From assembly GCF_000420625.1 (NCBI RefSeq), contig NZ_ATVH01000014.1:470348-534347 (forward strand): a stretch of DNA of 64,000 nucleotides. Direction: 5' to 3'. This DNA is from Fodinicurvata sediminis DSM 21159 (GTDB lineage Bacteria; Pseudomonadota; Alphaproteobacteria; Kiloniellales; DSM-21159). Every line of letters starts with the position of its first letter. Within the stretch, counting starts at the first letter, position 1. A model generated the notes under the pieces. The model was given only the letters and a program-made list of their open reading frames with translations, did not search any database and was not told the origin of the DNA. Position numbers and translations under genes: made by a program. Shown piece by piece: positions 32,808 to 61,738 of this stretch.

Positions 32808-33383
32808 ATGAGCGAAGAAGAGAACACAGAGCAAACTGAAGAAGTCACTGTCACGGAATCTGACGAACACCACACTCAGGCTCGCGACTGTATCCATCGC
32901 CACAGCGCCTATGCCGCGGTCGGTGGTCTCGTTCCAATTCCCTTCCTCGAAATGGCGGCAAGCAGCACCATTCAGTTGCGGATGATCGCAAAGCTTTGCG
33001 ATATCTTTGGGGTGCCCTTCTCTGAGAACGCGATCAAGAACTCGATTGCAACTCTGGTGGCAACGGTTCTGCCAGCATCCGGCATTGGGCTTGCAACAGC
33101 CAGCCTGATCCGCCGCGTTCCGGTGGTTGGCACAATTTTCGGTGTTGTTGCCATGCCGACCTTTGCAGCGGCCTGTACCTATGCATTGGGGCGCGTTTTT
33201 GCCTGGCATTTTGCCAAAGGCGGTACTGTTGATGATTTCGATGCCGAGGAAATGAAAGGTCGTTTCCAGGACGAGTTTGCCGAGGGCAAGCGCAAGGCTT
33301 CGGATTTCGTCAAGGGAGAGAAGGCCAGTTCAAAGACAAGCGGCACAAAGACTCCAGGGGGCGCAGCAGCTGCCAAAGCCTGA
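32808..33383 (+). CDS. DUF697-like membrane-associated protein, paralogue 2
   Basis: AAVGGLVPIPFLEMAASSTIQLRMIAKLCDIFGVPF... is colinear with paralogue 1 (GxxPIPxxDxAA...QLxMxA...GxxF). Confidence 0.45.
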   Translation: MSEEENTEQTEEVTVTESDEHHTQARDCIHRHSAYAAVGGLVPIPFLEMAASSTIQLRMIAKLCDIFGVPFSENAIKNSIATLVATVLPASGIGLATASLIRRVPVVGTIFGVVAMPTFAAACTYALGRVFAWHFAKGGTVDDFDAEEMKGRFQDEFAEGKRKASDFVKGEKASSKTSGTKTPGGAAAAKA

Positions 33384-33492: not shown

Positions 33493-34263
33493 ATGAAGCC
33501 TCAAGACGCTGTCCGCGTCCATTCGCTTCAAATGAAACGTGCGAAAGGATCTGTGACCTTCTGCGATGTTACGTATCTGCGTGCGACACTGGTGGTCCTT
33601 GCGCTCGATCAGCTGGATGACGATTGCCTGGACGACTATATGACGTCCTGTTTTCATGCAGAGGAATGGGCCCGGCTGCAGGCGCTGGAACACGACAAAC
33701 GCAAGCAAAGCTACGCCACTGGGCGAATTGCCGCAAAGTTGGCCCTGAAAAGCCATCACGACGGCCTCGACCCACGTGAAATCTCCATTGGATCTGGCGT
33801 ATTCGAACAGCCAGTGATTTGCGTCACGTATCCAGGGATCAGCGAAACGGGCATATCCATTTCGCACTCGGCCAGCTACGCCGCAGCGCTGGTATTCCAT
33901 AGGGCGCATCCGATGGGGATCGATATCGATCTGCCGGCGAAGAAAGACATAGGACCAGTGCTTTCCGGCCTTGCTTCAGAGGAACGGGGTTTGCTCGACG
34001 ATCTGGGTCTCGATGAGTCTGCGGCGGCCACATTGATCTGGGTCGCCCGCGAAAGTCTCGCGAAGACGCTTACCACCGGCATGATGACGCCGCTGTCCAT
34101 CTACGCACCTTCCTCGATCGAGGCAGACAACGGTATTTTCACCCTTCGCTATCGCAATTTCGCCCAGTACCGCACCCTCGTCTGGCAGGGCCTCAAGGGG
34201 TGGCTGGCCGTGACACTTCCAGAACGGACCGCTCTCGACGTATCCAGCCTTCCATGGGCTTGA
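33493..34263 (+). CDS. 4'-phosphopantetheinyl transferase (Sfp/EntD type)
   Basis: GIDID motif (HPMGIDIDL) and WVARESLAKTL (the W/FxxKE[S/A]xxK motif); 256 aa. Confidence 0.8.
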   Translation: MKPQDAVRVHSLQMKRAKGSVTFCDVTYLRATLVVLALDQLDDDCLDDYMTSCFHAEEWARLQALEHDKRKQSYATGRIAAKLALKSHHDGLDPREISIGSGVFEQPVICVTYPGISETGISISHSASYAAALVFHRAHPMGIDIDLPAKKDIGPVLSGLASEERGLLDDLGLDESAAATLIWVARESLAKTLTTGMMTPLSIYAPSSIEADNGIFTLRYRNFAQYRTLVWQGLKGWLAVTLPERTALDVSSLPWA

Positions 34264-34304: not shown

Positions 34305-37300
34305 TTACCTTAGCTCATGCCGGATACAGGCAGCGACATTGACTATATCCGGGTCGAACATCATCGATCCGTGCGTGCCCGGAACCCATTCCAGCTTCAC
34401 CTTCTCGCCCGCGAAGCTTTTCCAGCCGTTATAGTCATCGCCTTCAATACCGGGGGCTGCCGAGATTATGGTTTTCGGGCGGATCAACAGTACATCGACA
34501 GTCTCGAGAACTGGTGGAATGTAGTGGACGGCCGCCAGAGCATTGTTCTGAAACACGGCCAGAAGGCGCCGGATCACGCCACGATCGGCTTCCCTGGGCA
34601 GAAGCTTGGAATTCTTTCCCCGTTCAAGCAGTAAATCAATACGACCCTCCGGAGTCAGCGGCCTAAGCTCAGCAGCCTCGACAATGCCGAGTTCGGCGAA
34701 CAGATCTGATAGATACTCGGCCTCATCCTTGCGCAGAAGTTCACGCACGGCATCCGGCACCGCAACTGCGTCGAACAGGAAGACGCCTTGCACCTCCACA
34801 CCGGCCTGCTGCAGGCGGTAGGCGGCCTCGTAGGCAAGCAATCCACCGAAACTCCAGCCGGCAAGGAACACCGGCCCCTCCGGAATGACCTCTCGAACGT
34901 GGGGCATATAGGCCGCCACCATTTCCTCTACGGAAGGGGCAAGTGACTGGCCTTCCTCAAGCCCCTGCGCTTCAACCATGTAGATCGGCTGGTTCGGCCC
35001 TAGTTCCCGGGCCAGGGCCTGGTAACAGAGGATGTTCCCACCAACGGGGTGAAAACAGACCATTGGAACGGCCGATCCCGTCGTATTGACGGGCACGAGC
35101 GGACTCTTGGCGGCTTGTGCCTGTTTTCTTTCCGATATGCGGGCCGCGAGTCTGGCAACGCTTGAGCAGCTGAAGAGATCGCTGAGCGGAATCTTTACAC
35201 CAGTCTCTCGCGTGATCCTGGAAAGAAACTGAACGGCAAGAACGCTGTGCCCGCCAAGCTCGAAGAAATCTGCATCGGCGTCGTCGACAGAAAGATCGAG
35301 CACGTCGGCCATCAGAGCGGCAATCTGATGCTCCATGGCATCCGCCAGCGGCTTTGCCGGTCTCTTCATTCCATCCGGCCGTGTCTTCTCCGGACTCGGC
35401 AGCTTCGCGTAATCGATCTTGCCATTCGCGGTCAGCGGAATCTCGTCGACACAGATGAAACAGCTGGGCAGCATATAGGATGGCAGCGCCTCTTCCAGCT
35501 GAGCGCGACAGGCGGCAGCATCGAACCCGTCTTCTGTCACCAGATAGGCCACGATTCCCGGGCTGCTCTCCTGTCCCTCCTCTGCCATTATGACAGTGGC
35601 CCGGCGAACCAGGGGGTGCCGGGCAATAGCATTCTCGACCTCTCCCAACTCGAGCCGGTTGCCACGGACCTTGACCTGCCTGTCCTCGCGCCCGACGAAG
35701 ACGATTTCCCCATCGCCACGCCGACGGCCCACGTCACCGCTGCGATACCACCGGCTGCCGTCTGCACGCTTGATGAACTTCAGGGCATTCTCGTCGTCTT
35801 CACCCAGATATCCGCGCGCGACACCGGCCCCACCGATACGGATTTCACCGGGTACGCCATCGGGCAAGCTGTTGCCCTGGTCATCACAGATATCGAGGAT
35901 GACACCCTGTATCGCCTGGCCGATCGGTGGGGGCAGGATCTGGCGAAAATTGTAAGCGGTCATCACATACTGAGCCGCAGATACACAGCATTCCGTAGGG
36001 CCATAGGCATTGACCACTCTGATGTCGCTGTGACCGGGAAGCGCGAAGAAGCGTTCCACAAGATCCGTCGACACCACCTCTCCACCCAGCACGACCATAC
36101 GCGCCCCACAGGATTCTCCCATTTCCTCCCAGTAATCCAGCAGCAGCGCGAAGAGGCTCGGCGTTGCATCGAGTTGGTCGATTCCATGTTCGCGGATGAA
36201 ACGGTGCAGAGCCTCGGGGTCACTCCGGGTATCGAAGCCCGGAACATGCAGGCACTGGCCATTCAGGATGGCGGCAAATAACTGCACGATCGAGCCGTCA
36301 AAGCCAAAGGGCGCCACACAGGTCAGATCGAGACAGGCGCCCGGATCGTCCGCCCCAAGAAGCAAAAGCTGAGTATCAAGGACCGACTGGGCAAGATTGA
36401 CGACGGACCCATGCTCGATCATCACTCCTTTCGGACGTCCGGTTGTCCCGCTGGTGAACAGCACATAGGCAAGATCGCCGGCCGAGGTGTCAGCCAGCTG
36501 CGCTCCACTGCTGCAAGCCTCCAACTGCGCTCTCGCGTAGCGTCGTTTCCGAGCGTATCCCGCCGCCACGCTATCATCGGCCGTGAGGAGGAAGTCAAAG
36601 GCATACGGGGCTGGATCGAACCCGGGGGCATCGATTGCCGATCGCTGCGAAGTAAAGCCACCCCTCTCGGCGCGCCAGTCCTGCAGGAAAGCCTCGGGAA
36701 CGAAAAGATCCTCCAGGAAATCGAGGCGGGTGTCATATCCCTTTCCGGCATTCTCACGAGCGAAAGCCGCCAGATCCGCCAGGTAAGCATCACGCCGGTC
36801 GGCATCCCAGACATTGCCAATGAAGATTGCGCCGCCAGGCGCCAGAAGCCGGGCCACCTTGTCCAGCACCTGACGCAGGTAACCAAATCCCGGGAAATTC
36901 TCGATCACGCTGTTGAGGATGACCAGATCGAAGGAACCCGGCTCAAAGACATCCACATCATGGGCGGCCAGCTGGCGCCCCATGACATGGCTCATGCCGG
37001 ATTCGATCGCCAGGATTTCCGTGCGTTCGACATTGCGCCGCGAGATATCGGTCGCAACATACTCGCCGACCAGGGGGGCAACATGCCTCATGGTCACACC
37101 GGAGGCACAGCCAATCTCGAGAACCCGGCTGTCCTGCGAAACGACGCCCGCCACCTTGCTGCGCGCATTGGCGCCGAAGGCTTCCATGACCTTCTGGGGT
37201 ATCTGCTGCCCTGTAAAGGCAGATTTCCAGCCACCGGCAAGAATATCGTCAGCGTCATCGCCGGCAAGATGATCCCAGAGCTCGGCCGACATCAAGGATC

Positions 37301-37799
37301 CGGGCGCCTCGGAGAGTGCGTCGACCTCATCTTGGTCCATACATAGTATGCGGTCGACTGACCCGCAGCGCCATTGCAACTGATGCAGATCCCCGATGTG
37401 GGCGCCATCTCCCACAATTAACGGGAGTCCGGTACTTCGGACGATGGAAAGACGCCGGATCAGCGGCATATTGGGATCGAGCGGGACAAAGGCGCAGCCT
37501 GCCTTGAGGACGCCCAGTATTGTCGTGATGTAGTGCCGCGAACGGCCGGTCATCACGCCGACCAGGGTTTCCTTGCCGAGATCCAGGGCGGCGATGAAAC
37601 GGGCGATCCGGCTGCTTTCGAAATCAAGTTCTCGGTAGGTCAGTTTCCCGTCTTCGTCATGAACGGCCAGGCGCTCGGGATGCTCTGAAAGCCCGTTCGC
37701 AAATCGCTCGACAATGCTGTCGGTCACCACATGCGACGTGGGGGCCGGCGCTTCATGCGAGGCTTCAAGGTCGTCAAAATCGAAATCGCCAATCTTCAT
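34305..37799 (-). CDS. NRPS termination subunit: A domain interrupted by a methyltransferase (between cores a2 and a3) - T - TE
   Basis: a2 LKAGCAFVPLD (aa ~98-108), SAM motif I VLEIGCASG (aa ~226-234), a3 LAYVLFTSGTTGRPKG (aa ~445), A10 NGKIDYAKL, T-domain FFELGGHSV, TE GWSFGG. No C domain. Confidence 0.9.
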   Translation of the reverse strand: MKIGDFDFDDLEASHEAPAPTSHVVTDSIVERFANGLSEHPERLAVHDEDGKLTYRELDFESSRIARFIAALDLGKETLVGVMTGRSRHYITTILGVLKAGCAFVPLDPNMPLIRRLSIVRSTGLPLIVGDGAHIGDLHQLQWRCGSVDRILCMDQDEVDALSEAPGSLMSAELWDHLAGDDADDILAGGWKSAFTGQQIPQKVMEAFGANARSKVAGVVSQDSRVLEIGCASGVTMRHVAPLVGEYVATDISRRNVERTEILAIESGMSHVMGRQLAAHDVDVFEPGSFDLVILNSVIENFPGFGYLRQVLDKVARLLAPGGAIFIGNVWDADRRDAYLADLAAFARENAGKGYDTRLDFLEDLFVPEAFLQDWRAERGGFTSQRSAIDAPGFDPAPYAFDFLLTADDSVAAGYARKRRYARAQLEACSSGAQLADTSAGDLAYVLFTSGTTGRPKGVMIEHGSVVNLAQSVLDTQLLLLGADDPGACLDLTCVAPFGFDGSIVQLFAAILNGQCLHVPGFDTRSDPEALHRFIREHGIDQLDATPSLFALLLDYWEEMGESCGARMVVLGGEVVSTDLVERFFALPGHSDIRVVNAYGPTECCVSAAQYVMTAYNFRQILPPPIGQAIQGVILDICDDQGNSLPDGVPGEIRIGGAGVARGYLGEDDENALKFIKRADGSRWYRSGDVGRRRGDGEIVFVGREDRQVKVRGNRLELGEVENAIARHPLVRRATVIMAEEGQESSPGIVAYLVTEDGFDAAACRAQLEEALPSYMLPSCFICVDEIPLTANGKIDYAKLPSPEKTRPDGMKRPAKPLADAMEHQIAALMADVLDLSVDDADADFFELGGHSVLAVQFLSRITRETGVKIPLSDLFSCSSVARLAARISERKQAQAAKSPLVPVNTTGSAVPMVCFHPVGGNILCYQALARELGPNQPIYMVEAQGLEEGQSLAPSVEEMVAAYMPHVREVIPEGPVFLAGWSFGGLLAYEAAYRLQQAGVEVQGVFLFDAVAVPDAVRELLRKDEAEYLSDLFAELGIVEAAELRPLTPEGRIDLLLERGKNSKLLPREADRGVIRRLLAVFQNNALAAVHYIPPVLETVDVLLIRPKTIISAAPGIEGDDYNGWKSFAGEKVKLEWVPGTHGSMMFDPDIVNVAACIRHELR

Positions 37800-40700
37800 T
37801 CAACTGTCCTTGTGGAAATTCTCGGCTGCTGCGCGGGCAAACCTCTCCAGGAAGCCAAGCCAGCGCTGCATGGTCTGTGCCTCGAAAAGGTCGGTATCAT
37901 ACTCCAGCGTGAAGCGCGCCTGACCGGCCTCTTCAGTCAGGAAAAGAATCAGGTCGTGTTTTGCCGTCGTGTTGTCGACGAATTTGTCCAGATTGCCTGA
38001 CAGCAGGCCTTCCCGTTCGCTGGAAATCGCAGGCAAGCCGCTGTTTTCATCCATGCGAGCCAGCGCATCGAAGCGCTGGTACTCGAAGACCACATTCACA
38101 AGCGGCTGGCGGTTGGCATGGCGTTTGGGCGCCACGGCGCGCACCAGTTCATCAAAGGGATAGTCCTGCCGGTCCAGAGCCGAGGTGATGTTCAGGTGGA
38201 CATCGTCGATCAAGGCCTCCAGATCGGATTCCTCGTCAAGATGCACACGGATCGGCAGGACATTGACGAAGAAGCCGATCAATCCTTCCGTCTCGGTCCT
38301 CTCGCGGCCGGCCACCCCCATACCGATGACCATATCCTGCTGTCGGGTCAGGCGATAAAGCATCGCCGAAAAGATGGCCAGCCCGACAGCCGAAAGCGTC
38401 GTATTGCGGGCCTGCGCCAAGCCATGCAGGCCGCTGAGAACCTCTGGCGCTATAGGCAGATGGACATGAGCCCCGCGATAGGACTGAACCTCCGGCGCCG
38501 GTCGGTCCGTGGGAAGCTTGATCTGCTCAGGCGCCCCCTCCAACTTCGCGCGCCAATACGCGGCCGCCTCCAACCAGTTCTGTTCGACCTGCCAATGGGC
38601 GAAGTCCTTGTAGGTGATGGGCAGTGGCGCCAGATCAGGCGTTTCACCTCCCAATGCTGCTTGATAGAACAGGTTGAGCTCGCGCAACAGAATCCGCGAG
38701 GACCAGCCATCCCCCACGATATGATGTGTTGCCAGGATCAGCAGCTGCTCGTCGGAACCGACCTTGATCATCTGCGCACGGATCAAGGGCGGACGGTCGA
38801 GCGCGACCGGAGTGGCCGCTTCCTCACGCGCCAGGCGCAACGCTTCACGAAGAGGATCGGAATGATCCGAGACATCATTGAAGGCGACAGTCGGTGATGT
38901 GGTTTGGTCAATGCGCTGCACGATACTGCCGTCCTGTTCGATGAAGGCAGTACGCAAGGTTTCATGGCGTTCGACCAGAGCCCGAAGCGCGGATTGCAGG
39001 GCCTCGGCTTTCAGCGCCCCGCTGCACCGCAGCGCAAACAGCATTCCGTAAGCGCCACTGCCGGCCTCCATCTGCGAGAGCAGATACAGCCTTCTTTGCG
39101 CATGACTGGTGGGATAGACATCCATCTTCGGAGCCGGCGGGATGACGGTCCCGGCGGCATGGTTGTCATCTGTGCTCATATCATCGATATGGCGTGCCAG
39201 GCCCGCAATGCTCGGGTTGGCAAAGAAGTCTGCCATGCTGAGACGTTTGCCTGTGCGATCCATGATCCGATTGACAATCCGGATTGCCATCAGACTGTGG
39301 CCGCCAAGGACGGCGAAGCTGGCATTACGGCTCTGGATCGTGGTCTCGAACACTTCACTGAATATATCGGCAACAAGCTGCTCGGTCGGCGCAAGCGCTG
39401 TTTCTTCCTCGTCCGGCCCCTGTGCATCGATCGGGGACTGCATGAGCACCCTGTCCAGCAGTGCCTTGCGATCAACCTTGCCGTTCTCCGTGATCGGGAT
39501 GTCATCGACCAGGTACCATTTCGCCGGCAGCATGTAGCTGGGCAGGCGTTGACCGAGCCAGGCCTGCAGACCTCCCAACCGGCTGTCCGATACGGTACCT
39601 GCTTCATCGCTTTCCTGGATGCAGGCGATGATCTCGCTACCGTTCAGGCCATCAGGGTTGAACAATGCAACGGCATTCCTGATGGAAGGTGCCTGGCGCA
39701 GCTGCTGTTCGATTTCATCCAGTTCGATGCGGAAACCGCGCAGCTTAACCTGGTTGTCCCGGCGGCCGCCAAATTCGATCCGGCCATCACGGGTCCAGCG
39801 TGCCAGGTCGCCGGTCCGGTAGAGTCGTGCACTGGGGCAGTCGGGATCGGGCACGAACCGTTCCGCAGTCAATTCCGGGCGGCCCCAGTATTCGCGCGCC
39901 AGCCTGTCTCCCCCGATCTGCAGTTCTCCCCAGGCCCCGATCGGCACGCGCAATCCGCTTTCGTCACGGATCACCGTCCTGGTGTCCGCAATGGGGCGTC
40001 CAATGACGGTGGAATCCATATTCTCGTCCAGTTCGGACGCCCGGATCCGTGTCACGGTCGTAAAGGTCGTGCTCTCGGTCGGGCCGTAAGCATTCAAAAG
40101 TTGGGTGTCCGGGCAGGCCTCCATGAACCTGCGGGCGTGCGACTTGCTGATGCTGTCGCCGCCGATCATCAGGACCTTCAGTCCCGACAGGCTTGCCGGA
40201 TCATGGTCGATCTGTCGATTGAACAGCCCCACGCTCATGAACATCTTGTCGACACCAAAGCGCTCCAGGGACCTGGCGAAGGCGGCTGGATCGAGCAGCG
40301 TATGGCGATCAATCACGGCGATCTCGGCGCCGCAAAGCAGCGTCGTCCAGATTTCGAAGGTCGCGGCATCGAATGACAATGGCCCGGCCTGGGCCACCAC
40401 ATCACCGGGTGCAACCCAGGCATAGTCCTCGCCCAGGGCCAGGCGCAGGACAGCCCCCTGCTCAATCAGAACCCCCTTGGGCTGACCCGTCGAGCCGGAG
40501 GTGTACATGAGGTAGGCCGGCGCCGCGTGCGGGTCCTGTAATGCCGGGGGCTCGAAACTGCCATCGTCAGGAGGGATTTCGGCGACATGGCAGACCTGTG
40601 CGACACAGTCCGACATCTCTGCGAAGGCAGCTTGTCCGACATCATCGACCAGAACAATTCTGGCGCCACTGTCTTCTAGTATGAAGCGGTTCCGTTCCAC

Positions 40701-43700
40701 TGGATAAGCCGGATCGAGCGGCACATAACCGGCGCCGATTGCAGCGACGCCAAGCATGGCGGCAATTGCCTGACGGCCGCGCTCCACATGCATCGCGATA
40801 AAATCACCCGGCTCGACCCCGGCCGCTGCCAAGTGGCGCGCCACGGCCCGCGCTTCGGCCAGCAATTCGCTGTAGGTCCAGGCGCCCTCGGAATCGCGGG
40901 CGGCGCAGTGCTCTGGCGAAACCGTGACCTTCGACGCAAACAGGCCAAACAGGCTGGTATCATCGGGAACAGTGGCAGCGGGACCGTTCTCCCATACCTG
41001 CAGGTGCCTGGTCTGGTCTTCGGGCAACAGCTCGATGGACCCGACCTGCTGGGCATTGGAGTGGATCAGGCGCTTCAAGGTGTTGGAGAACACCTCGCCA
41101 AGCTGTTCGATACGTGCACGGTCATAAAGGTCCGCATAGTAGTCGAAGGTGATCGCCATCCTCTCGGGCAAATCACGCACGAAGATCGAGATGTCGTTCT
41201 TGCTGTGGCGACGATCGAGGCTGATCACCTTCGGCGCAATGCCGCTGCTGTCCGATCCCGGATTTGCCGCCTGATAGTTCATGTAGGACAGCGTCACTTC
41301 CGACAGCAGAGTTCGATCCGGAGCAGCGGGAGGAGACAGGTCATCGAGAAGCTGGTCCAGGAAATAGGCCCGGTGGCGAAGGGCATTGACATGATGGTGC
41401 TGCATTCGCGCCAGCAGACCCTCGACAGTATCCCTGCCACGGACCTGCATGCGCAAAGGCAACAACGAGACCATCATCCCTGCCACATCCCGGAAACCGG
41501 TAGCATCACGAGCATCCACCGGCACGCCGATGACGAGATCCTCCGTCTCGGCAAGACGCGAGAGAACGACGAACCAGGTCGTCAGGACCAGGGTGAACAT
41601 CGTCACCCGCTGATTTGCGGCAAACTTCCGCGCCTCCCCCAGCAGCTCGGGATCAAGCTCGAACCCGACGATATCTCCCCGGAAGGTGTGATAGGCCGGG
41701 CGACGCCGATCGGCAGGCAGGTCGAGCTTGGGCAGTGAATCGGCATAGAGTGACTGCCAATAGCTCTTCGCCGACGCGAGACGCTGGCGATTGTCATCCG
41801 TGTGGCTCCACCAGGCATAATCGCGCAACTGGTAACGAAGCGGGGCAAGGTCCTCTCCGCAATGAAGTGCAAACAGTTCGCCAAGCAATCGTTCGACACT
41901 AAAGGCGTCGGCAAGTATGTGGTGGATATCGAAGAACAGGGCCGTCTTCCCGGAGGGGTCGGCCAGGAAGCGCCAGCGCACCGGGATCTCATTTTCCAGA
42001 TCGAAGGGCTCCACCAGCGCCGTACAGGCCTCTTCAACCGGCGCGTTGACCTGCGTCACGGGCAGCTCGCTGATGACCTGTGCAGCCGGCAACACCTCCA
42101 TCTGCCAGTCGTCACCATCGGGCAAGATCCGCGTGCGCAAGATTTCATGGCGCTCGGTCAGACTCCGGATTGCGGCCCGTAGACCATCAAGATCACAGTC
42201 TTCGCCAAGCACAAAGGCGTGGGGCAGGTTGAACGCGGTGCCCATGTTGCCCTTCTGCGCGGCATTCATCACCGACAACTGTTCCAGCGCCAAGGGGTAG
42301 CGCGACAACTCCGGTGCACATCGCGGGTCGGCTTCCTCGGGCGGAGCCTGGTCAACCACGTCCGCTGGCGTCTCCGCTTCCGCCTCCAGCGGGGAATCCT
42401 TCACGGCTTCCGCTTCACCGTCCGAAGGCGCCAGTTTCTCCTTCAGTTTCCGGATGCTCGAATGCTCAAACAGGTCGGTGAGGCTCACCTCATGCCCGAG
42501 TTCGCGAACTATGCGATCGGTAATTTCCATACCGGTGATGGAATCTCCGCCAAGCGCATAGAAATCCTCATCTGGATCGACCGCGTCATATCCCAGCGTT
42601 TCGGCCCAGATCGCTGCAAGCGCCTTCTCCAGACCGGCCGCCGGTCGGTCGCCTGTGCCGGCAGCGTCCTCTGGCAGTTCGCCCCCCCTGCCCGCGCCAT
42701 CGGGCGCGCTACGGGCAAGGGCCGCAACTTCCGACACGCTCGAGGCCGTGAAGAGGTCCGAGAGTGTCAAGGAAAGCCCGAGTTCCCCGTTGATCTCGTC
42801 GACGATCTGCATGCCGGTGATGGAATCACCGCCAAGCGCAAAGAAATCATCCTGTGGAGCGACGGAGTCATACCCAAGTACCGCCGCCCAGATCTTCGCG
42901 ATGCGGGCTTCCACATCACTTTCGACAGCGGGTGGCAATGCTGCTTGCGAAGAGACAGATGGGGTTATCGCTTCGGGAACGCTCTGTGGATCATCTTGCA
43001 GAAGGACGGGGTCAAGCATGGTCAGCTGTGCAGTCGAACTGCCCAGTACGCTCCGCCACAGCCTGGCGGCATCTCCCGGACGGATCCAGGCCCCCTCCTG
43101 CATCGGCACATCGTTGCGGGCAGCCATGCCCTGGTCACTGAGCGCACACCAGTCAATCGTCTGGGCTGGCCGCCCTTGGTTTCTGCGCAGCTGTGCAAAA
43201 CCATCCAGGTAGGCGTTCGCTGCCGAATAGGCTGTTTGGCCCGGCGCACCGACCACGGCCGTCAGGCTACCGAACATCATAAAGGCCTGAAGCGGATCAT
43301 TGCGGGTCAGTTGATCAAGGTTCACAGCCCCTGCAACCTTGGCCGATTGCACCGCATCGAACTGTGCCATGTCGCGCAAGGCAAGAAAGCCACCGTCCGC
43401 GATACCGGCGGCATGCACCACCGCCGTGATGGGGCCCAGTTCCTTCCGGATACGATCCAGCGTCTTACCAAGTTCAGCACTGTCGGCAACATCGCAGGCG
43501 AAGAGTGACAGCCCCATCCCCTTGCCACGCAGCGCCTCAAGACCACGCCGTGTGTCCTCGTCCAGGCCCGCTTCATCGCGCCGGCCGAGCAAGGCCAGGT
43601 GCACCTTTCCGCCTGCCGACATTTCCTCGGCCAATGCCAAGGCAAAACCGCCCGTTCCACCGGTGACAAGACATACACCGTAATCCGGCCAGCCGGCGTC

Positions 43701-46700
43701 CTCGCGCCGGTCGCTTTCCTCAAGCGGCACGAGCTTGCGCACGAAACATGATTCATCGCGATAGACAGTGACCGGATCGCGTGCGGGTTTGCAGGCCAGT
43801 TCGGCCCCCAGGCAACTCCGGAGCGTTTCGGGCGTCATGTCGGCATAGCTTATCGCAAGCCTGGGTTCTTCATGTGCAACAGCGGTCACAACGCCTGCTG
43901 TTCCGGATTGATCCGGCGCCATCGCGACATCATCGCCCGCCATCTGGAACGCACCGCACCCCAGGGTGACAAGTCGCAATCCTCCGCTCATGTTGCGCAG
44001 GACACTGCGCAGGGCTTCAGCGTTCCGGCGCGGCGCGTCCGAACCGGGCTGCAGCGCCAGCACCGCATGTGACATGTCCGAGAGAACCCTGCGATCAAGA
44101 TCGTCGGGATGCACCGCCCGGCAGCCGTGTGGCACCGGCCAGAAATCCCCATCCGTGATGAACAGGCACCCCTCGGGGATATCCTGCTGCCGCACGGCTG
44201 TCGTTTCCCAGAGGGTCTTCAGCGGTTCCGGAGCCCCTGTCCTGGCCTCACCGCCTGCGTTACCAAAGCGGATGCCGGTGACCGTCAGGACAGGTTCGAG
44301 GCTGTCGGCATCGAACAGCGTCACATCAAACTTACCGGGAGAATGTAACTGGCCGCACGCAAACACCTCTGCGCTGGATAGCCCATGAACCATGACCCGC
44401 TCTATACCGAGCGGAATGGAGCCTTCAGCCATAATATCCAGGGCCATGCTGCATGCGACATCCGCCAGGGCCGGGTGGAACAGCCAGTCGTCCAGGTCCG
44501 TGTGATACTTGTCGGCCAGTCGCAGATGCTTGATTGCAGAGGTGCTTTCCGGATCGCTCTGGAAGGATAAACTGCAATCCCAGCGCTCACTCATGGCAAC
44601 CGGGCCATACTGTCCGGTGAAGCCTGCAAGAGAGTGTGTAACCGTCGCCTTGCCTCGAATGGATGTCAGATCGGGACCGGGACGGTTGGATGCTATGACG
44701 TGCCTGTTCCATCTGGCCGTAGCAAAGACGCGCCACTTCCCATTCTTCAAACGCCCGGCCAATTCGACTTGGCCGTCCTCGTATATGCTGAGCGTCACCT
44801 TGCCATCAGGCACAGCGGACGCGACCAGTGGGTGATGCCAGGTCAGATCATCTATCCCCACCGTCCGGCCTCCGCCGTCAAGCTGCTTGACTGCCTGGGC
44901 GATCAGTGCCGGCACCGCCATGCCGACAAGAGTCGGCTGGCCGTTCAGCTTGTGCTCATTGACCGGCCAGAAGTCGGGATCACTGATGGCAAGGCTGAAG
45001 CACTGTGCCGTTGCGGTTTCCACCGGCCCCCGCAGCCAGGTTTCTAATGTTCGCTGCCCTGCCTTGAAATCCGGCTTGCAGGGCTTCTTGACGAAGGGGG
45101 CAGACGGCAAGGACACGCGCCGCGCCTGCCGCCCATCGGGCCAGCCGAGCGGCGCACCGTCAAGATAACGGATGATATGACCCTGCGCTTCTGCCGCCGT
45201 GGTGGCAGAGGCACTCCCTGCCTTGCCTTCGCCGGGAGTCTTGGCGAAACCTGCCTGACGTCGGCCATCTGCAAGCTGCGTCAGCTGGTCCAGCAATTCC
45301 TCGCGATTCTGAACTGCGACGGCAAAGCGATACTTCAGGTCATCGCGGCCTGTGGCCAGCGTGAAGGCGATATCGCGCACGGCAAGGCTGTCGTCGGACC
45401 GGATACGCTGATGAAGTTTTGCGGCATAGTCGCGCAATGCCGCCTCGCTGCCCGCTGAAAGAGCAACCACGTGGATTAAACCTGCATCGGTGTGAGCACT
45501 AATTGTGTCGATGAAGGCTTGGGCTGCTTCGACCACCATGTGCGCATTGATTCCGCTCAGGCCAAAGGAGCTGACACCCGCACGCCGTGCCTGGCCACGA
45601 TCGGGCAGTTTCTCCAACCGCTCGGGCACACGAACCGGTGAGCGGTCGAAATCGATCTTCGGATTGGGGTTTTCGAAGAAAGGTTGCGGCGGGGCGCGAT
45701 CATGGCGAAGTGCCAGGATCGCCCGCGCCAAGCCCAACGCACCGGCGGCACCGTCCAGGTGTCCGTAATTGCCCTTCCCCGATCCGATAAAGGCGGATTC
45801 AAACAGCTGATCCCTTCCTTCGAAGGCACGGGTGATGCCATCGATCTCGATCGGATCGCCGAGCGATGTCCCCGTTCCATGCGCCTCGAAATAGGAGAGG
45901 CTTGAAAGATCGATATCGGCGGATTCCGCCGCCTGTCGAATGACCTCCGCTTGCTGCATCGGGTTCGGTGCGGCCGCACCGCTGGAGGCGCCGTCTTGGT
46001 TGACTGCACTGCCGCGAATGACGGCGTGGACGGGGTCTCCATCCTTCATCGCCGCGTCGAGCGGCTTCAGGACAAAGACGGCACTGCCTTCGCCCACCCC
46101 CGTCCCATCGGCATCTGCGTCAAAGGCACGCGTGCGTGCGGTCGAGGAGTCGATTGTGAAAGCGCTGTCCGCATCGGACGGACAGGGCAGCAGCTTTGCG
46201 CCGCCGGCGATGGCGATCCTGCTGCTGCCATCACGCAAACTCTGACAGGCATCGTGGACGGCGACGAGCGAGGAGGAGCACGCCGTATCGATCACCCGGG
46301 CAGGACCATGCCAGTCCTTCAGGTAGGAAAGGCGCGCGACGATGTTGGACGGCACATTGAGGGCGAAGGCCTGCTCGGCCTTCCCGCTCGCCGCATGCTC
46401 CATGACAAGCCGCCAGGCCGGATTGGCACCACCGCCGGCAAACACGCCAACTCTCTGGCCGCGCAGGGCGTTGCCGCCATAACCGGCATTCTCCAGCGCC
46501 ATCAGGGCGGTTTCCATGAACAACCGCTGTTCGGGATCCAACAGGCTGGCGTCCGCGGGTGCCATGCGGAAACGCTGGGCATCGAAATCGAAGATGCTTT
46601 CAAGGTAGGCGGCTTCACGGAAGTGCTTGGGTGCCTTAATGCCGATGGCGGAGAGGAGAGCACGTGTTTCCGCTTCGCGTGTCACCGGAAGCGGGCGGAC

Positions 46701-49700
46701 ATGATCCTGCCCCTCTGCGATATCACGCCAGAAGGCATCCAGATCCTCGGCGCCGGCAAGCTGGACCCCCATGCCGATCACGGCAATCGGTGCAAACTCG
46801 GCCAGCTTCACTTCTGCCGCCTCGGCCAAGTCGCCCGATTTCGCATCGGCAGACTGACCGGCAAGCAGTTCGGCCTGGCGCGCAATCGAGGGGTTGGCAA
46901 AGAGGTCGGCGATCCGAAGCTTTCCCGGCCAGCGCGCCTCGATCTTCTCGAACAGTCGCAGCAACAGAAGGGAGTTTCCGCCTACATCGAAGAAGCCATC
47001 TTCGCGTGCTGGCGCAACATCCGGCAGCACCTCCTGCCAGAACCGGGTAAGTTGCGCTTCAAGCAGGCCTGCCTGCGGGTCATCCTTTTCTGTCGATTCC
47101 ACTGCGGCTTCGGCCGATCTATCGGCGGCATTCGGTGAAGCCGCCAGAGGTGCCCCGGCAAGAGCCTTGCGATCGATCTTGCCGCTGCTCGTCAGCGGCA
47201 GATGCTCGATGACGAAGAAACGGGCGGGCATCATGTACTCAGGCAAGCGACCACGCAGATAGTCACGCAAGCCAAGGGGAGTCAGGTCGTCGCTGCCCAG
47301 GATGAAGGCATGCAATTCGTCGAGTTCGCCGATCTTGACGGCCTTGACCGGCGCGCGCTCCACGGAAGGATGGCTTTCTAGGGCGGCTTCGACCTCACCG
47401 CATTCGATGCGGAAACCGCGAATCTTGACCTGATGATCGATGCGGCCGAGATACTCGATCGTCCCGTCCCGGCGCCATCGCCCCAGGTCACCGGTACGAT
47501 AGAGGCGTTGCCCGGGATTGCATGGATCTTCGGGGAATTTTTCGGCACTCAGTTCGGGACGGTTGCGGTATCCCCGTGCAACCTGAACACCGCCCAGGAC
47601 AATCTCACCGGTCACGCCGATCGGCAGCGGCTGCAGCTCCTCTGTCAGGATCTGAACCGTCGTATTGGCAATCGGTTTGCCAATCGGCACCACAGATCTG
47701 CCCGGACTGGGCGAACAGGGCTGCCAGGTCACATCCACCGTCGCCTCTGTCGGACCATAGAGATTGTGCAGTTCGGTCCCGAATCTCTCGTACAGTAGAT
47801 CGTTGAAACGCTCCACGATCGGAGCGTCCAGGGCTTCACCGCTGGCAAAGACGCGTCTGAGGCTGGACAGCTTGTCGATAGCGACCATGCCGCTTTCGAT
47901 GGCGAACAGGAAGGTCGCAAGCATCGATGGCACGAAATGCAGTGTCGTGACCCCATTGTCGTGGATTGTTTCAGCAAGCTGCTGGGGATCACGCTCGGCC
48001 CCAGGGGGCGGCAGAACGAGTTTCGCACCGGTCCACGACCACCAGAAGAGTTCCCAGACCGACACATCGAAGGTGATCGGGGTTTTCTGCAGGACAACGT
48101 CATCCGGTCCGATCGGGAAGGCGTCCTGCATCCACAGGATCCGGTTCAGGACCCCCCGATGCGCAATCTCGACTCCCTTGGGACGCCCCGTCGACCCGGA
48201 GGTAAACAGCACATAGGCAAGGTCATCCGGTCCGCCGGCGAGCTCCGGGATATCGGTATCCTCATGACCCTCGACAACGAGGACCCGGCCGTCATCGAAC
48301 AGCTCGACAAGATCCGGCGTCGTCAGCACCGGACCATCGCCAAGATCTTCAAGCATCTCCCGACGGCGCTGTTCGGGATGGTCGGGGTCGAGCGGGCTAT
48401 AAGCCGCCCCAGCCAGAAGGATGCCGTGGATAGCAGCCAGCATGTCGACGGAACGCCGCATGGCCAGGCCGACCACCTGACCGGGCCGAACGGACCTTTC
48501 CGCCAGTTTCGTGGCGATTCCGGAGGCGCGCCGCGCAAACTCCGTGTAGGTCAGGCTTTCCCGGCCATCCTGGAGCGCGACTGCATCCGGTGTCCTGCGG
48601 ACCTGATCGAGAAAGGGTTCTGGAATGCTGCGCTCGATTGGCAGATCCTGCGTGGTCGCATTGAACCGGTCGAGCTCGTCCCTTTCGCCCTCCGGCATCA
48701 TGGGCAGGCGCGAAACCGCTGTCGTGGCGCCGGAGGCAAGGGCACTGCGGCAGAGGATGTTCAGTCGTTCGACCAGAGCCGCGATGGTTTCGCGATCGAA
48801 CAGGTCGCTGTCGAACTCGATCTGACCCTGCAGGCGCCCATGACGGCGCCAGAAATAGAAGCCCAGATCGAACTTGGAGAAGGGGAACGCGGTCTCGACC
48901 AGAGAGAGCTCTGCGTCACCCAGTTTGCCCATCTCCGGGATGCCGTCCTGCCAGGCGACCAGGACGTCAAAAAGCGGATTTCGCGAAAGCTCGCGCGGTG
49001 CATTGACCGCACTTACGATGTCCTCAAAGGGCACGGCCTGATCGGACAGTGCATCCATGATCGTCCTGCTGGTGACGGCCAGATGGTCGTCGAACCGCAT
49101 CCCGGGATCGACCGACTGGCGCAGCAGCACAGTGTTGACGAAGAACCCTATGACACTGTCGAGGGCGCTATGCTCGCGCCCGGCAACCAGCATGCCCAGT
49201 GGAATGTCAGTCTGCCCGCAATGGCGATGGAGCAGGAGTTGCACAAGTGCCGTCAGGATACTGAAGGCGGTCGTGCCGCTACGCTCTGCTTTTTCCTCGA
49301 TGAGTTGGGTTGTTTCCGCGTCAAACGTGAAGTCATGGAAACCTCCGGCAAAGCGCCGTTCAGCCCCGCGCGGCCGATCCGTTGGCAGATCAAGCGGTTC
49401 GGGCAAAGGCGTCAAGCGATCTTTCCAGCGTGCGAGCGCCTCCTTGCCGGCATCGCTTTCCAGATAGGCCCGCTGCCAGCTTGCGAAATCTTCATAATGA
49501 CGCTCCAGCTCTGGCAGGACGGCGGCTTCGCTGGCCGCTTCAGCTTGATACAGAGCCGTCAGTTCCTGCAAAAGAATCGGCATGGACCAGCCGTCACAGA
49601 TCGCATGGTGCAGTGAGATCATCAGCCAGTGACGATCGCTAGCCAGGGTGATCAGGTCTGCACGCGCCATTGGCACATCATCGAGGTCGAAAGGCCGCGC

Positions 49701-52700
49701 AGCTTCACATGCAATGAAGCTGCGCGCCGATGCCTCATCCATTCGATGGCGGCGCAAGCTCCAGGACCCGCCGGGGGCTAGATACTGGCTGACTCCATCC
49801 GGATGTCCGGGGTCGCTCCTGAAGCGTAGGCGCAGTGCATGCTGGCGCTCTTCCAAGGCATGAAGCGCGCGCTGCAGGGCCTCGGCATCAACGGAACCAT
49901 CGATCTGGAGCGTTGCCGGAACCGAATAAACGGCAAGATCCGGCTGCATGCGCTGCAGGACCCAAAGCCGGGCCTGACCGCTTGAAAGCGGGAAGCGCTC
50001 GCCGCGTGCCCTGGGCAAGCTGCTAGAGCCCGTTGTCCCTCCCTGGCTATCCACAAGTGCCGCCAGGTTCGCAACTGTGCGTGACGTGAAGATATCCTGA
50101 AGCTTTGGACGGAAACCGGTTTCCTTTTCGATCAGGCCGGCAAGCCGCATGGCGATCAGGCTATGCCCGCCAAGGGCGAAGAAATCGGAAGCCGGCGTGA
50201 TCTCGTTACCGGCGAACAGGCTTTCAAACAGGGCGAGGACGAGCTGTTCTGAAGCGCTATTCGCAGTGGCTGCCTGTACCGGGGTGTCCTCGGCACTTGC
50301 GATCATGGAATGCAGCGCCTTGCGATCCACCTTGCCATTGGCATTGACCGGCAGGTGGTCCAGCACAACGACCCGTTCCGGGATCATGTACTCGGGAAGC
50401 GCGCGCGCCGCTGCGGCAATCCATGAATCGCGATGGTCGCAATCAGCGGCGATTGCAGCGCCAAGAAAGGCATCGGCACCTTTGCCCATAGTCAGGACGC
50501 AGATATTTCGGATGCCCTCCAATTCGGAGAACTTCTGCTCTACCGCCGCAAGCTCGATCCGGTGTCCACGGATCTTGACTTGGCCATCCCCGCGTCCACC
50601 GAATTCGATGGTGCCATCGCTACGCCAGCGGGCCCGATCCCCGGTTCTGTATAGCCGCTCCTCGGCGATATTGCCGTACTGCACGAAGGATCTGGCTGTT
50701 CGTTCGGGAGCGCCACTGTACCCCAGTGCCAGGCCATCACCCGCAGCATGAAGCGTGCCCCAGCAGTCGGTTGGCGCCACTTGGCTCCTGCTGTCCAGAA
50801 CGTAGACCCGGGTATTGCCGATTGGCCTGCCGATGGGGATGTTGCTGGCGGAAACATCCTGCCCGGTGATCCTGTGCGTGCAGGTGAATGTCGTGTTCTC
50901 GGTCGGGCCATAGCCGTTGATCAGCGTCAGATTGGGACAGGCCTGCATGACCTTCATGACATGCGCAGGGCTCAGCGCCTCTCCTCCGGTCATGAGGCGC
51001 TCCAAGGACGCGAAGGCTGTCGGAAGATCGTCGGCTATGCGGTTGAACAGGCTGGACGTCAGCCACAGGCTCGTCACCCCGCACGTATCAAGAGTGTCCT
51101 TCAGTGCGTTGGGATCGAATAGCGTATCATCCTCGATGACTTGAAGCCGCCCACCATTGAGAAGCGGCGCCCAGATCTCGAGCGTCGAAGCATCGAAGCC
51201 AAGAGACGCCGCTTGAGCGATCACATCCTCCGGCCCGAAAGGCAAAGCCACATTGTTCAGAACAAGGCGCGCAACAGCCCGGTTCGGCACCAGAACGCCC
51301 TTGGGCTTTCCGGTCGAACCCGAAGTGAACATGACATAGGCCAGGTCATGCCCCCTGCGCTTTGCAGGAACGGCGTCCCGTGCCCTGCCGTCCTGGTCCT
51401 CGCCACCGCCTTTCGGAAGCGACGTGACCTGGAAGCTGTCTTCAAGTTCGGACAGGCGCGCGCGTTCGCGCGGATCACATAGCAGTGTCCGCGCGTCGCA
51501 CTCGTTCATGAGGTCGGCAACCGTCCTGGCAGGCAGGGACCGGTCAATCGGCAGATAGGCCGCCCCATGCCAGACCAGACCCAGGATCGTAAGGATGCTG
51601 TCCAGACCACGCGCGGCGGCCAGGCCGACGGTCTCCCCCGCCCTGACGCCGCTTTCGTCGAGTTCCGCAGAAATCGCAGCCAGCCGGTTTCCCAGCTCAC
51701 GATAGGTGATCCGGGACCTGCCATCCTCAAGAGCCACCCGCTCAGCAGAATCCGGATGGTTGATGCGCTGTGCCAGCAGTTCGCCAAGACCGGAATCTCT
51801 TGGATAATCCGATTGCGTCGCGTTGAACGCCGTTTCCAGAAGGTGCTTTTCATCTGCCGGAATCAGGTCGACATCGCCGATCGGTTGCGAGGGATCCCTG
51901 GCAAGAGCGCAGGCAAAGTTCAGGAAACGATCCGTAAAACGTTTCACCCAGTCGACGCTGAAGGCGGCTGTTTGATGTTCCACCGCCAGATAGGTACCGG
52001 ATGCGAATTTGACCAGCGCGATCAGCAGCGGGAACTTCCCGGCGCCAACATCGATGTCGGTGACATCCTCCACGTCCTCATGAATTTCGATGACGCTGAC
52101 GGCATCGAACGGCAAATCGGCAGGGCCTTGCGCGTGTTTCGAGAGCCCCTGGATCAGGCGCGTAAGCGGATAGTCCTGCACATCCATAATCGAGAGGATT
52201 TCGCGCCCGACCTGCTTCAGCAGCACATCAAAACCTGCGTCCATATCAGGCGTAATGGCAATCGGCAGGACATTTGCAAAACAACCAAGCGCATGCAGGC
52301 TTTCGCGATCCGCACGCCCGGAAAACGGTAGGCCAAGACAGGCTGCGCCATCCTCTCTGTGGCGCGCGATGACTGCAATCACAAGTGCCATCCAAAGCGC
52401 TGATTGGGTCGCTTTCTCGGCATGGCGCGCTAGTGTCTCCAGCGCTTCGGCTTGGGCTGGTGTCAACTCGACCAGATGGCGTTTGGCCCGATCCTCCTTT
52501 TCCGCAAAGGGGTCGCTTGGCAAGCCCTCGGCCAGAAGCTGGTCGTACCGCTGTTCCCAGAATTCGACAGCCTTGCGTCCACGCTCGCCGGCCAGTTCCC
52601 GGTGAGCGCGCCGGGATAGAGCCTCGGCACTGGATGGGGTTTGCGGCTGCCCGCCTGATAGCTCCTCGAGCAGTTCCTTGCGCAACAACGCGATGGATTG

Positions 52701-53333: not shown

Positions 53334-56300
53334 TAAAGCGCCCCGTGCTCACGTCCTCGCGAGCCATTCGTCGTCAGAGCAGTCGACGCCCCGTCCGCAT
53401 GCGCTGTACGCTCAGAAAGGAATTTCGCCACAGCTTCTGGCGTCTGGTACTCAATCATCACCGAGGCCGGGACTTCGACCTTGAACACCTCGGAGATGCG
53501 TGACGCGATCCGCACCGCCAACAGGGAATCCCCGCCCAGGTCAGTAAAGTCCTGATCTGCCGTGATGCCCGAATTCCCGAACATCTCGCTCCAGATTCTA
53601 AGAACCTTGAAAAGATGCATCTGCTCCGCGGACGCGGTCTGTCCATCGTTGACGATTTCCGGAGTGCCCGTTTCCAGTGTGCCCGCCGTATCCTCGGCGC
53701 GCAGCGAAGCGGGATGCAGGCGCTCTTTGCCTGTCCGGCTCGACTGTTCAGCACTTGATCTCGCCCAATGGCGTCGCCGGTCAAATGCATAAGTCGGCAC
53801 CGGAATGCGACGCACCATGTCACTCGGCACGACAGTTCCGAAATCAAGCTTCACGCCCTGAACCCACATCTGCGCCAACGCGGTCTGCAGGGCGACGTGA
53901 CCGGCATCGACTTCACTGCCAGTTTGTTCTGACATTTGCCGTGGATGGGTTGCAATGCAGAGCTTGGCATCCGCACCGTTCGCGGCGGCGAGCCGGCAGG
54001 CGATGTCACCATGACCACAGTCCACCATCAGGGCTCCGGGCATGGCCGCCTGCAGTCCTTTGATGTTATCGGCGAAGCGGACCGAGTTGCGCATGTGCTG
54101 CACCCAGTAATCGGGATTGACCGCCTCAGCATCACGCAGCCACTGACCGGTCAGATTGGACTGTATCGGAATGCCGGGCGGGGACAACGCGATCTGGCCA
54201 ACAGCTTTCCGAAAGTCCGCGAGCACCGATTCCATCAAGGCGGAATGGAAGGCGCGTGAAACCATGAGCCGCCGTCCGACCTTGCCTTCTTGCTGCAGAC
54301 GCTTCTCGAAATCGTCGATCGCTTTGATCGAGCCGGAAACCACGCACTGCCGCGGGCTGTTGATCGCGGCAAGCGAGAGCTCTGGACCATGGGCCTCCAG
54401 AAGTGCTCCGACTTCCGCCTCACCGGCCGCGAGCGCATACATGGCACCAGGGTTTGTCGAGGCCATCAGCCGCCCGCGTATCACCATGAGACGCAAGGCA
54501 TCCTCGAACGACATGACACCGGCCAGGCAGGCCGCGACATATTCCCCGATGCTGTGCCCAGCCAGCGCGGCCGGTTGGACACCGCAGGCCATCAGGTGGC
54601 GGGCCATGGCATATTCACAAATGAACAGAGCCGGCTGCGCATGGTCGGTTTGCGCAAGACGTTCCGCAGATTCGGATGTCGGCTCAGTTGCAAGAAGCAG
54701 GGATCTGAGATCTTCAGGACCGGAAAAATGCGCTACAGTTTCACAGGCCTGATCGATCAGTTCGGCAGAGGCCGCGTCGGCAGAATGGAGCATGCGTGCC
54801 ATACCCGGTTGCTGCGCCCCCTGCCCCGGAAAGAGGAATGCGGTGATCGCCTCGCTGCTGTCCGCCAACCCTTCGACACGCGCAGGAGACTTCGCATCGG
54901 CAAGAGCCCAGCCGGCAGCTTGGATTGTCTTGGCAACGATGGCGGCACGGTAGGGATATTGTCGCCGCCTGGAAAGGCTGTAGGCCAGATCGCGAATATC
55001 GGCATCCGCCCCTTTGTGCGACAACCAAACAGATGTTCGCGCCATCAAGGATGTCAGCGCCCCCGGGGTGGCTGCGGAAAAACACAGCAAGTGGGGGATC
55101 GGATCGGCAATGCGCTCATCACGCGTTGTCGTTTCCGGGGCGGCTTCAAGAACGACATGCGCGTTGGTGCCGCCAATCCCGAAACTGCTGACACCCGCGC
55201 GAAGTGGTGTCGCTCCGTCCCCTGCCAACGCGACAGGCTGGCCGTTGATCTGGAAGGGCCCATCCTCAAGCGGCAGGCGCGGATTGGGCTCCTCGAAATG
55301 GCAGGTCGGCGGCAGCGTACGGTATTTCAGCGCCAGCAGCGCTTTGATGAGTCCGACCATTCCCGCCGCAGCATCCAGATGCCCGAAATTCCCCTTGACC
55401 GATCCCAGCCAGATTGGGGCTTTGCCTGATGTATCGCCGCTGCCGAAAACCTGATTGAGCGCCGATACCTCGATCGGATCGCCAAGAGGGGTTCCGGTGC
55501 CGTGCCCCTCGATGAAGCGGATGCTTTCCGGGGCGACCTTCCCATCGGCCAGAGCTGTCCGGATAGCACTGGCCTGGCCATTTGCAGTCGGGGCGCTGAA
55601 AGCCGCCTTCGCTGTGCCATCGTTGGAAAGCCCGACCCCCTTGATAACGCCATGAATGGTATCCCCGTCGGCGACGGCATCGCTTAGCTTTTTCAGGACA
55701 ACGACCGCGCCACCACTGGCGCCAACAACACCGTCTGAGCGATGGTCGAAGGGGCGGCATATACCACTGCGCGACCCGATTCCGCCTTCAGTGAAGTAGT
55801 ACCCACCTGAAGGCGCAAGCCCCAAGGAAGCAGCCCCCGCAAGGGCAACGCGGCACTGCCCCGCGCGCAGGGCCTGCACGGCAAGTGCAATGTTGACCAG
55901 ACCGGTTGAGCATGCGGTGGACGTGGACAGTGCCGGGCCAGTCAGGTTCAGCTTGTAGGCCAGCCGACTGGCCGCATAATCCTTGTCATTGGCGATTGCG
56001 AACCCGTACCGCACGGCCCCCGAACCCGTGCCCGCTTCTGCGCGGCCGAGAACATCGAGCATATAGCTGTTGAAACCAACGCCCACATAGACCCCAACCG
56101 GGCCGTCCTGCTCCGGCTGGCAGCCGCTGTCTTCCATGGCGGTCAACGCCGTCTCGAGCAGCAGGCGATGCTGCGGATCGGTTTCGCGCGCCTCCCGATC
56201 CGTCATGGAGAACAGGGTTGCATCAAAGGAATCCACGTCATCGAGAATGCCATGACGTGCGACAAAGGCCGGATCCTCCAGCTGTGAAGGATCCCCACCC

Positions 56301-60257: not shown

Positions 60258-60286
60258 GGCAGTCCCACCCTTTCCAAGGCCATAAT

Positions 60287-60314
60287 TTACACTGATTCAG
60301 TGTAACTTACACTA
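60287..60314. promoter_or_regulatory. palindromic candidate operator TTACACTGA-T-TCAGTGTAA plus a third TTACACT copy, ~30-55 bp upstream of the SQR-like gene start
   Basis: A perfect 9-1-9 inverted repeat read directly, followed by ...cTTACACTag. Confidence 0.4.
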
Positions 60315-60435
60315 GCCAGTAAAAAGGAGAATTGCTCTGCGCGAATTGTCACGTGTTCAAGGGCCATGGACCGTCCTGTCAGAAGGCCGCCTGCCCTGCC
60401 TTGGACAGGGCAGGCCCTTGCAAAGGACTCAAATC

Positions 60436-60557: not shown

Positions 60558-60578
60558 TCTATGCTCCTTCCTGCGGCG

Positions 60579-61733: not shown

Positions 61734-61738
61734 GGCTC

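Follow-up and report, generated by a model that had tools for sequence, protein, structure and literature searches.

A probable thalassospiramide-type termination module in Fodinicurvata sediminis with a methyltransferase between motifs a2 and a3 of its adenylation domain

Results

We analyzed a 64,000-nucleotide stretch of the genome of Fodinicurvata sediminis DSM 21159 (contig NZ_ATVH01000014.1, positions 470,348 to 534,347; hereafter the window), focusing on a reverse-strand gene that encodes an adenylation (A) domain interrupted by a methyltransferase (MT), followed by a carrier (T) domain and a thioesterase (TE). This gene very probably encodes module 6, the terminal module, of a thalassospiramide-type hybrid nonribosomal peptide synthetase/polyketide synthase (NRPS/PKS) line, and is an ortholog of ttcC and ttbB whose A domain (A6), a member of family 4, is interrupted by a type V backbone N-MT. 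The embedded MT is predicted to methylate the backbone nitrogen rather than a side-chain oxygen, because it bears type V motifs and the protein is orthologous to TtcC/TtbB. The gene and its parts are as follows, in window coordinates.

34305..37799, (-) strand: TtcC ortholog, A6 (interrupted by MT)-T-TE, 1164 aa (open reading frame, Pfam, identity)
37314..37721, (-) strand: N-terminal part of the A6 core, spanning about aa 27-162 and containing a1 LTYRELD and a2 LKAGCAFVPLD (aa 98-108), aligned to the A-domain N-termini of LgrA and GrsA
36516..37313, (-) strand: inserted putative type V (backbone N-) MT domain, about aa 163-428, with approximate boundaries (Pfam, type V motifs, match to 5WMM)
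37098..37124, (-) strand: S-adenosylmethionine (SAM)-binding motif I, VLEIGCASG, aa 226-234 (motif search)
35400..36515, (-) strand: remainder of A6, about aa 429-800, motifs a3-a10 (motifs, alignment, AlphaFold2 (AF2) model)
35136..35327, (-) strand: T domain, aa 825-888, phosphopantetheine-site motif LGGHSV (Pfam and motif)
34320..35066, (-) strand: TE domain, aa 912-1160, nucleophile motif GWSFGG at aa 981 (Pfam and motif)

The last module is split and its A domain is interrupted between a2 and a3

Pfam assigned AMP-binding to the terminal protein in two stretches (E 7e-71), the second of which (aa 434-665) corresponds to profile positions 155-384, followed by AMP-binding_C (720-794), PP-binding (825-888) and Thioesterase (912-1044); no Condensation domain was found in this protein by Pfam. 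Motifs a3 to a10 of A6 read LAYVLFTSGTTGRPKG (beginning at aa 443), FDGS, NAYGPTE, GEIRIGGAGVARGY, YRSGD, GREDRQVKVRGNRLELGEVE, LPSYMLP and NGKID. All ten A6 motifs, the carrier serine motif and the GxSxG motif of TE are intact. In an alignment of 94 full-length proteins made with MAFFT (fast mode), the A(MT)-T-TE architecture was kept in more than 90 homologs and the MT motif residues were invariant or nearly so, indicating that the assignment is not a chance match. We also considered a degenerate MT or A domain and rejected it, because all motifs are intact and conserved.

The gene lies directly downstream of two large genes of the same strand, one of which supplies the condensation (C) domain of module 6.

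53333..58213, (-) strand: TtcA-like protein, 1626 aa, C1-T-KS-AT-T (KS, ketosynthase; AT, acyltransferase; Pfam and motifs)
37800..53333, (-) strand: TtcB-like megasynthetase, 5177 aa (Pfam, motifs, specificity codes)
37815..39122, (-) strand: C6, condensation domain of the split terminal module, HHIVGDG at aa 4870 (Pfam and motifs)

The TtcB-like protein is organized as a TubC_N docking domain, C2-A2-T, C3-A3-T, KS-(DH)-KR-T-T without an AT (DH, dehydratase; KR, ketoreductase), C5-A5-T, and C6. Its C-terminus is a Condensation domain (residues 4738-5173 of 5177), and no TE was detected in it by Pfam. Because the megasynthetase ends in a C domain without a TE and the next protein lacks a C domain, the last module is split into C on one polypeptide and A-T-TE on the other, just as an initial annotation, made from the sequence alone, had described. 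The TGA stop of the TtcB-like gene directly abuts the ATG of the terminal gene (TGAATG, 37797-37802), and the TAA stop of the TtcA-like gene overlaps the TtcB-like ATG (TAATG, 53330-53336); both junctions suggest translational coupling.

To locate the insertion, motif spacings and specificity codes of A6 were taken from an alignment to GrsA-PheA and to A2, A3 and A5, which are the uninterrupted A domains encoded in this cluster. The GrsA-PheA reference was verified residue by residue against 1AMU and returned its published code, DAWTIAAICK. The motifs quoted in the initial annotation were recovered (a2 at aa 98, SAM motif I at aa 226 and a3 at aa 443), and the distance from a2 to a3 was 334 aa in A6 vs 55-66 aa in the four uninterrupted domains. 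The MT therefore sits between a2 and a3, as had been proposed; the same spacings give a net insertion of about 270 aa, somewhat smaller than the roughly 290 aa first estimated. Pfam placed Methyltransf_12, 11, 23, 25 and 31 at aa 221-352 (E 3e-14 to 3e-10), so that the suggested profile scan for an MT was positive. The a6-a7 (20 aa) and a8-a9 (49 aa) spacings of A6 are both normal, which excludes an insertion after a8.

AF2, run on aa 1-810 with 67 sequences, gave a model with a predicted local distance difference test (pLDDT) score of 89.2 and a predicted TM-score (pTM) of 0.89. The didomain retains a complete A fold, with Foldseek TM-scores, normalized to the target, of up to 0.87-0.88 (0.87 to ApnA A1). 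Only A-domain structures were found among the Foldseek matches of the whole didomain, and the insert was therefore modeled separately for typing of the MT. No experimental structure of a family 4 interrupted A domain was present among the sequence and fold matches to the terminal protein in the Protein Data Bank (PDB); the AF2 model is a high-confidence one for a member of this family.

The inserted domain has type V motifs

Lundy et al. 2020 (PMC8341866) sort interrupted A domains by insertion site and MT type. Family 1, exemplified by TioS, is interrupted at a8-a9 by a type I backbone N-MT; family 2a, exemplified by KtzH, also at a8-a9 (A8-MII-A9), by a type II O-MT; family 3, exemplified by TioN, at a2-a3 by a type IV S-MT; and family 4, exemplified by TtbB, which is cited there as N-methylating L-Tyr, at a2-a3 by a type V backbone N-MT. 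According to these authors, side-chain O-MTs do not occur at a2-a3, and the type V M domain measures 270 +/- 6 aa, in good agreement with the net insertion of about 270 aa in A6. The a2-a3 position is the rarer interruption site, as the initial annotation had stated.

The insert contains exact matches to type V motifs i to iv: LAGGWKSAF (187), VLEIGCASG (226), EYVATDIS (246) and DLVILNSVIENFPGFGYL (291). The last of these includes the SAM-binding Asn (DLVILNSVIE), which is replaced by Ala in type IV S-MTs. Motif vi was recognized by alignment to TtbB as FDPAPYAF, compared with FDLAPYVY in TtbB; the Leu-to-Pro change is also found in the Thalassospira orthologs. No motif of types II, III, IV or VI matched the insert, type II being scored on motifs iv-vi only.

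The closest match to the insert by sequence in the PDB was 5WMM, the N-methylating A-M-A domain of TioS (E 1e-16), followed by MitM (8e-8). The separate AF2 model of the insert (pLDDT 94.3) likewise had 5WMM as its top fold match (E 1.6e-17; next 4e-11). The structure checks thus bore out the expected didomain, with a complete A fold around an insert whose nearest solved relative is TioS(A4-M-A4). The two M domains share motifs i-iv and vi, and the chemistry of TioS, N-methylation of a carrier-bound aminoacyl thioester, is the one predicted for the window insert. They differ in position and size: TioS is interrupted at a8-a9, in the small C-terminal subdomain, whereas the window protein is interrupted in the core, and the TioS M domain, at about 390 aa, is extended at its C-terminus by roughly 120 aa that the window insert lacks. 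This difference follows the classification, in which type I has motif v and the extension of about 120 aa and type V has neither.

These data bear directly on the type of methylation. The initial annotation had described the insert as a KtzH-type O-methylating architecture, which would make the MT a side-chain O-MT and the terminal residue O-methylated, for example O-methyl-tyrosine. Such an activity could be accommodated by the Pfam matches, which are generic for class I SAM-dependent MTs, and by the many O-MTs among the weaker structural matches, and the phenol of tyrosine could accept a methyl group. KtzH(A4) also resembles A6 in that its A domain contains a class I MT and belongs to one of the late or terminal modules of an NRPS. 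However, KtzH(A4), which O-methylates serine, is interrupted at a8-a9, where A6 has an uninterrupted 49 aa; its type II motifs, as scored on iv-vi, are absent from the insert along with those of types III and VI, whereas type V N-MT motifs match; and no O-MT is reported at a2-a3 in PMC8341866. TioS, an N-MT, is the closest solved relative by 8 (sequence) and 6 (fold) orders of magnitude, and the product of a characterized ortholog contains an N-methyl-Tyr that is lost upon inactivation of the MT (bioRxiv 10.1101/560987). We thus regard O-methylation as very unlikely, and the comparison with KtzH did not support the KtzH-type assignment. The main value of the present analysis lies in this correction: the insertion site alone is no indicator of O-methylation, as the a2-a3 site has been published for N- and S-MTs.

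S-methylation by a type IV MT of the TioN kind (family 3) deserves the same scrutiny, since TioN shares the a2-a3 site, a similar size and a related MT lineage, and PMC8341866 reports a close relationship of types IV and V in both sequence and size. None of the three type IV motifs (i-iii) matched the insert, however, and the Asn that is Ala in TioN is kept in LNSVIE. TioN, whose substrate is cysteine, is a stand-alone A domain, and family 3 as a whole consists almost entirely of such domains, not of A-T-TE proteins; the A6 code, in turn, is common to tyrosine-incorporating orthologs and is not a cysteine code. An S-MT can hardly be reconciled with these observations. By contrast, the terminal protein combines the features of family 4, namely the a2-a3 site, the insert size, motifs i-iv and vi, and full-length homology to TtbB; by its sequence, A6 belongs to family 4 (A2-Mb-A3), the interrupted A domains whose M domain is of type V.

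The terminal protein is orthologous to TtcC and TtbB

The terminal protein is 100% identical to WP_022728591.1 of F. sediminis. Over its full length it shares 80% identity with its counterpart in Fodinicurvata fenggangensis, 64-70% with those of many Thalassospira species, and 50% with TtbB of Tistrella bauzanensis (100% of the query, 1199 bits); the Thalassospira values refer to species other than the source of TtcC, strain CNJ-328, and the Tistrella value refers to TtbB, not TtmB. In RefSeq, WP_022728591.1 is named 'alpha/beta fold hydrolase', which hides the A(MT)-T-TE termination module.

TtcC of Thalassospira sp. CNJ-328 and TtbB/TtmB of Tistrella are the same kind of A(MT)-T-TE protein, with C6 on the preceding megasynthetase. 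TtcC/TtbB are interrupted at a2-a3 by an equally large domain (about 270 aa) that shares its motifs with the window insert, among them VLEIGCASG, whose final glycine is residue 234, and the Thalassospira orthologs have an identical specificity code and the same neighbors, including a phosphopantetheinyl transferase (PPTase). The window system differs in its host genus, Fodinicurvata (Rhodovibrionaceae), and is known here from genes alone. The MT of TtcC/TtbB N-methylates the terminal tyrosine of thalassospiramides, and in TtcC-G234D, in which MT6 is inactivated, methylated products were abolished or strongly reduced and desmethyl thalassospiramide A was formed (bioRxiv 10.1101/560987). Both the window protein and several Thalassospira orthologs from strains other than CNJ-328 have the final Gly of VLEIGCASG at position 234, a number that equals the site of the G234D substitution. 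The family 4 design, the TtcC-G234D test and the presence of the cluster in Fodinicurvata (PMC5577590) are already published.

The layout of the cluster is also of the ttc type: the order is TtcA-TtcB-TtcC, PKS module 4 is of the trans-AT kind, TtcB ends in C6, TtcC has four domains, and a TtcD-like PPTase is present. In the loci of F. fenggangensis and Thalassospira australica, the end of the megasynthetase meets the start of the terminal gene, as in the window. The specificity codes, extracted against GrsA, were as follows.

A2: DALWMGGTFK
A3: DVWHFSLVDK
A5: DAFFMGATFK
A6: DGVDVGAVSK

Read as Stachelhaus codes, that of A2 looks Val-like, that of A3 looks specific for Ser and that of A5 looks Val/Ile-like. 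The A6 code is identical in 17 Fodinicurvata and Thalassospira orthologs, and that of TtbB, DAIDVGAVGK, differs from it at three positions. The codes of A2, A3 and A5 would be compatible with the order Val-Ser-(C2)-Val-Tyr in thalassospiramides, and the set of codes with their described linker (Ser-C2-Val) and macrocycle (Val/N-Me-Tyr).

We propose the following sequence of events. A6 would adenylate L-tyrosine and load it onto T6; the embedded MT would then use SAM to methylate the alpha-amino group of Tyr-S-T6; C6, on the preceding polypeptide, would join the upstream Val-terminated chain to N-Me-Tyr-S-T6; and TE would release the chain by macrolactonization. Given the TE domain and the structure of thalassospiramides, the tyrosine carboxyl is presumably the one that is esterified by TE. 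We assign the substrate, the site of methylation and the sequence of steps from the characterized ortholog and from the rule, given as a general finding in PMC8341866, that interrupted A domains load their substrate first and methylate it afterwards. Thalassospiramides are cyclic lipodepsipeptides, and their terminal N-Me-Tyr is part of the conserved macrocycle at the C-terminal end (bioRxiv 10.1101/560987; PMC5577590). The initial annotation had predicted a methylated C-terminal residue; methylation of the last residue is retained in our proposal, but a free C-terminus is not, as this residue would lie within the macrocycle.

The first protein lacks an A domain

The TtcA-like protein has a 100% match in F. 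sediminis that RefSeq names only 'type I polyketide synthase', an uninformative label for a C-T-KS-AT-T hybrid, and Pfam found no AMP-binding match in its 1626 aa. Homologs of TtcA in Thalassospira are 2121-2163 aa long and carry AMP-binding, so that module 1a there has its own A domain (C-A-T), A1a, which the window protein lacks. Among the best 120 matches from 5.8 billion proteins, the A-less 1626-aa form was seen only in F. sediminis and in one 90%-identical protein of a Logan contig, and no close homolog from F. fenggangensis was among them. In Tistrella, some modules of the Ttm line have no A domain, and the line is nonetheless productive, the carriers concerned being loaded by other A domains (bioRxiv 10.1101/560987). 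Because Ttm also lacks A domains in some modules, we view the A-less first module as a variant inside the family, and the A-less TtcA-like protein as a modest increment on a known pathway family rather than a discovery.

As A1a has been lost entirely, T1 would need to receive its amino acid from an A domain further downstream, as happens in Ttm. The window protein keeps the cis-AT PKS module 1b, whereas the Ttm line, as we understand the text of bioRxiv 10.1101/560987, does not have this module. One speculative reading, which we consider rather improbable, is that the F. sediminis line is an architectural intermediate, with a Ttc-like cis-AT PKS module 1b, no A1a, and Ttm-like loading of T1 by a downstream A domain. 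If active, such a line could make distinct congeners, and MT6, placed N-terminally beside C6 and T5, could act in trans on the valine of module 5, a methylation reported for Ttc. The pathway is known for domain sharing and pass-back chain extension, and the F. sediminis cluster, a naturally A1-less variant, could be a test case for both. In the characterized thalassospiramide lines, pass-back extension has been proposed to be carried out by C2.

Side features were noted in the TtcB-like protein. The active-site motif of C2 is DHLCFDG (aa 205), in which the first His is changed to Asp and the second, catalytic His is kept, and that of C5 is HHILADA (aa 3804). Two tandem carrier domains (LGGDSI twice, at aa 3500 and 3594) follow the KR of the AT-less PKS module, and Pfam reported three PP-binding stretches in the same half of the protein.

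Several observations weigh against the assignment of the terminal gene to a thalassospiramide-type line with a backbone N-MT. Motif vi is one residue off the published type V consensus and did not match the exact pattern. The assignment of A6 to Tyr rests on the identity of its code with those of the orthologs, and the code is atypical for Tyr. With a first module that lacks an A domain, the pathway may differ from Ttc. Finally, a review (PMC5577590) notes that Fodinicurvata strains carry the cluster and that no thalassospiramide was detected from them.

The last two points could also mean that the module is intact in sequence while the pathway is cryptic or non-productive in Fodinicurvata and the MT has no observable chemical effect, a reading compatible with the assignment given above. 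The variant motif of C2 would agree with it, in addition to the loss of the A domain of module 1 and the lack of a detectable product. On the other hand, A6, MT, T, TE and C6 all retain intact catalytic motifs, the genes are uninterrupted and appear translationally coupled, C2 retains its catalytic His, and the Ttm line is productive despite its missing A domains. A silent pathway is accordingly possible, although we lean against it. Taken together, the evidence favors a thalassospiramide-type termination module with a backbone N-MT, whose product in Fodinicurvata, if made, would be expected to carry a terminal N-methyl-tyrosine.

Neighboring genes and cluster borders

The genes beyond the terminal gene, which adjoin the cluster, are as follows.

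33493..34263, (+) strand: Sfp-type PPTase (TtcD-like), convergent with the terminal gene (Pfam ACPS and 4PPT_N)
32808-33383, (+) strand: DUF697 protein
31301-32701, (+) strand: SPFH/Band 7 protein
27350-29359, (-) strand: 669-aa transporter of the major facilitator superfamily (MFS)

A PPTase, TtcD, is described for the characterized system in bioRxiv 10.1101/560987. In F. fenggangensis and T. australica, open reading frames (ORFs) of the sizes of the PPTase, Band 7 and MFS genes, compared by ORF size and position only, occur in the same order and relative orientation. Because this arrangement recurs in both genomes, the cluster may extend past the terminal gene. On the other side, upstream of the cluster, the (-) strand at 58962-63316 encodes a pyridine nucleotide-disulfide oxidoreductase and cytochrome bd oxidase subunits II and I (cydB, cydA), which are probably unrelated housekeeping genes marking the cluster border.

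Distant relatives of the termination module

Well beyond Thalassospira and Tistrella, we found about 95 proteins that likewise consist of A(MT)-T-TE alone and are 40-57% identical to the terminal protein. Their sources include Magnetovirga, Telmatospirillum, Pleomorphomonas, Nitrospirillum, Chlorobiaceae (including a metagenome-assembled genome), Acidobacteria and Desulfovibrionaceae. The specificity codes of these proteins differ, the commonest being DGHDIGQVCK (22 proteins). Judged by sequence, they look like uncharacterized kin of the thalassospiramide termination module. In Magnetovirga frankeli, the A(MT)-T-TE gene is preceded by a gene for a TtcB-like protein of 5128 aa.

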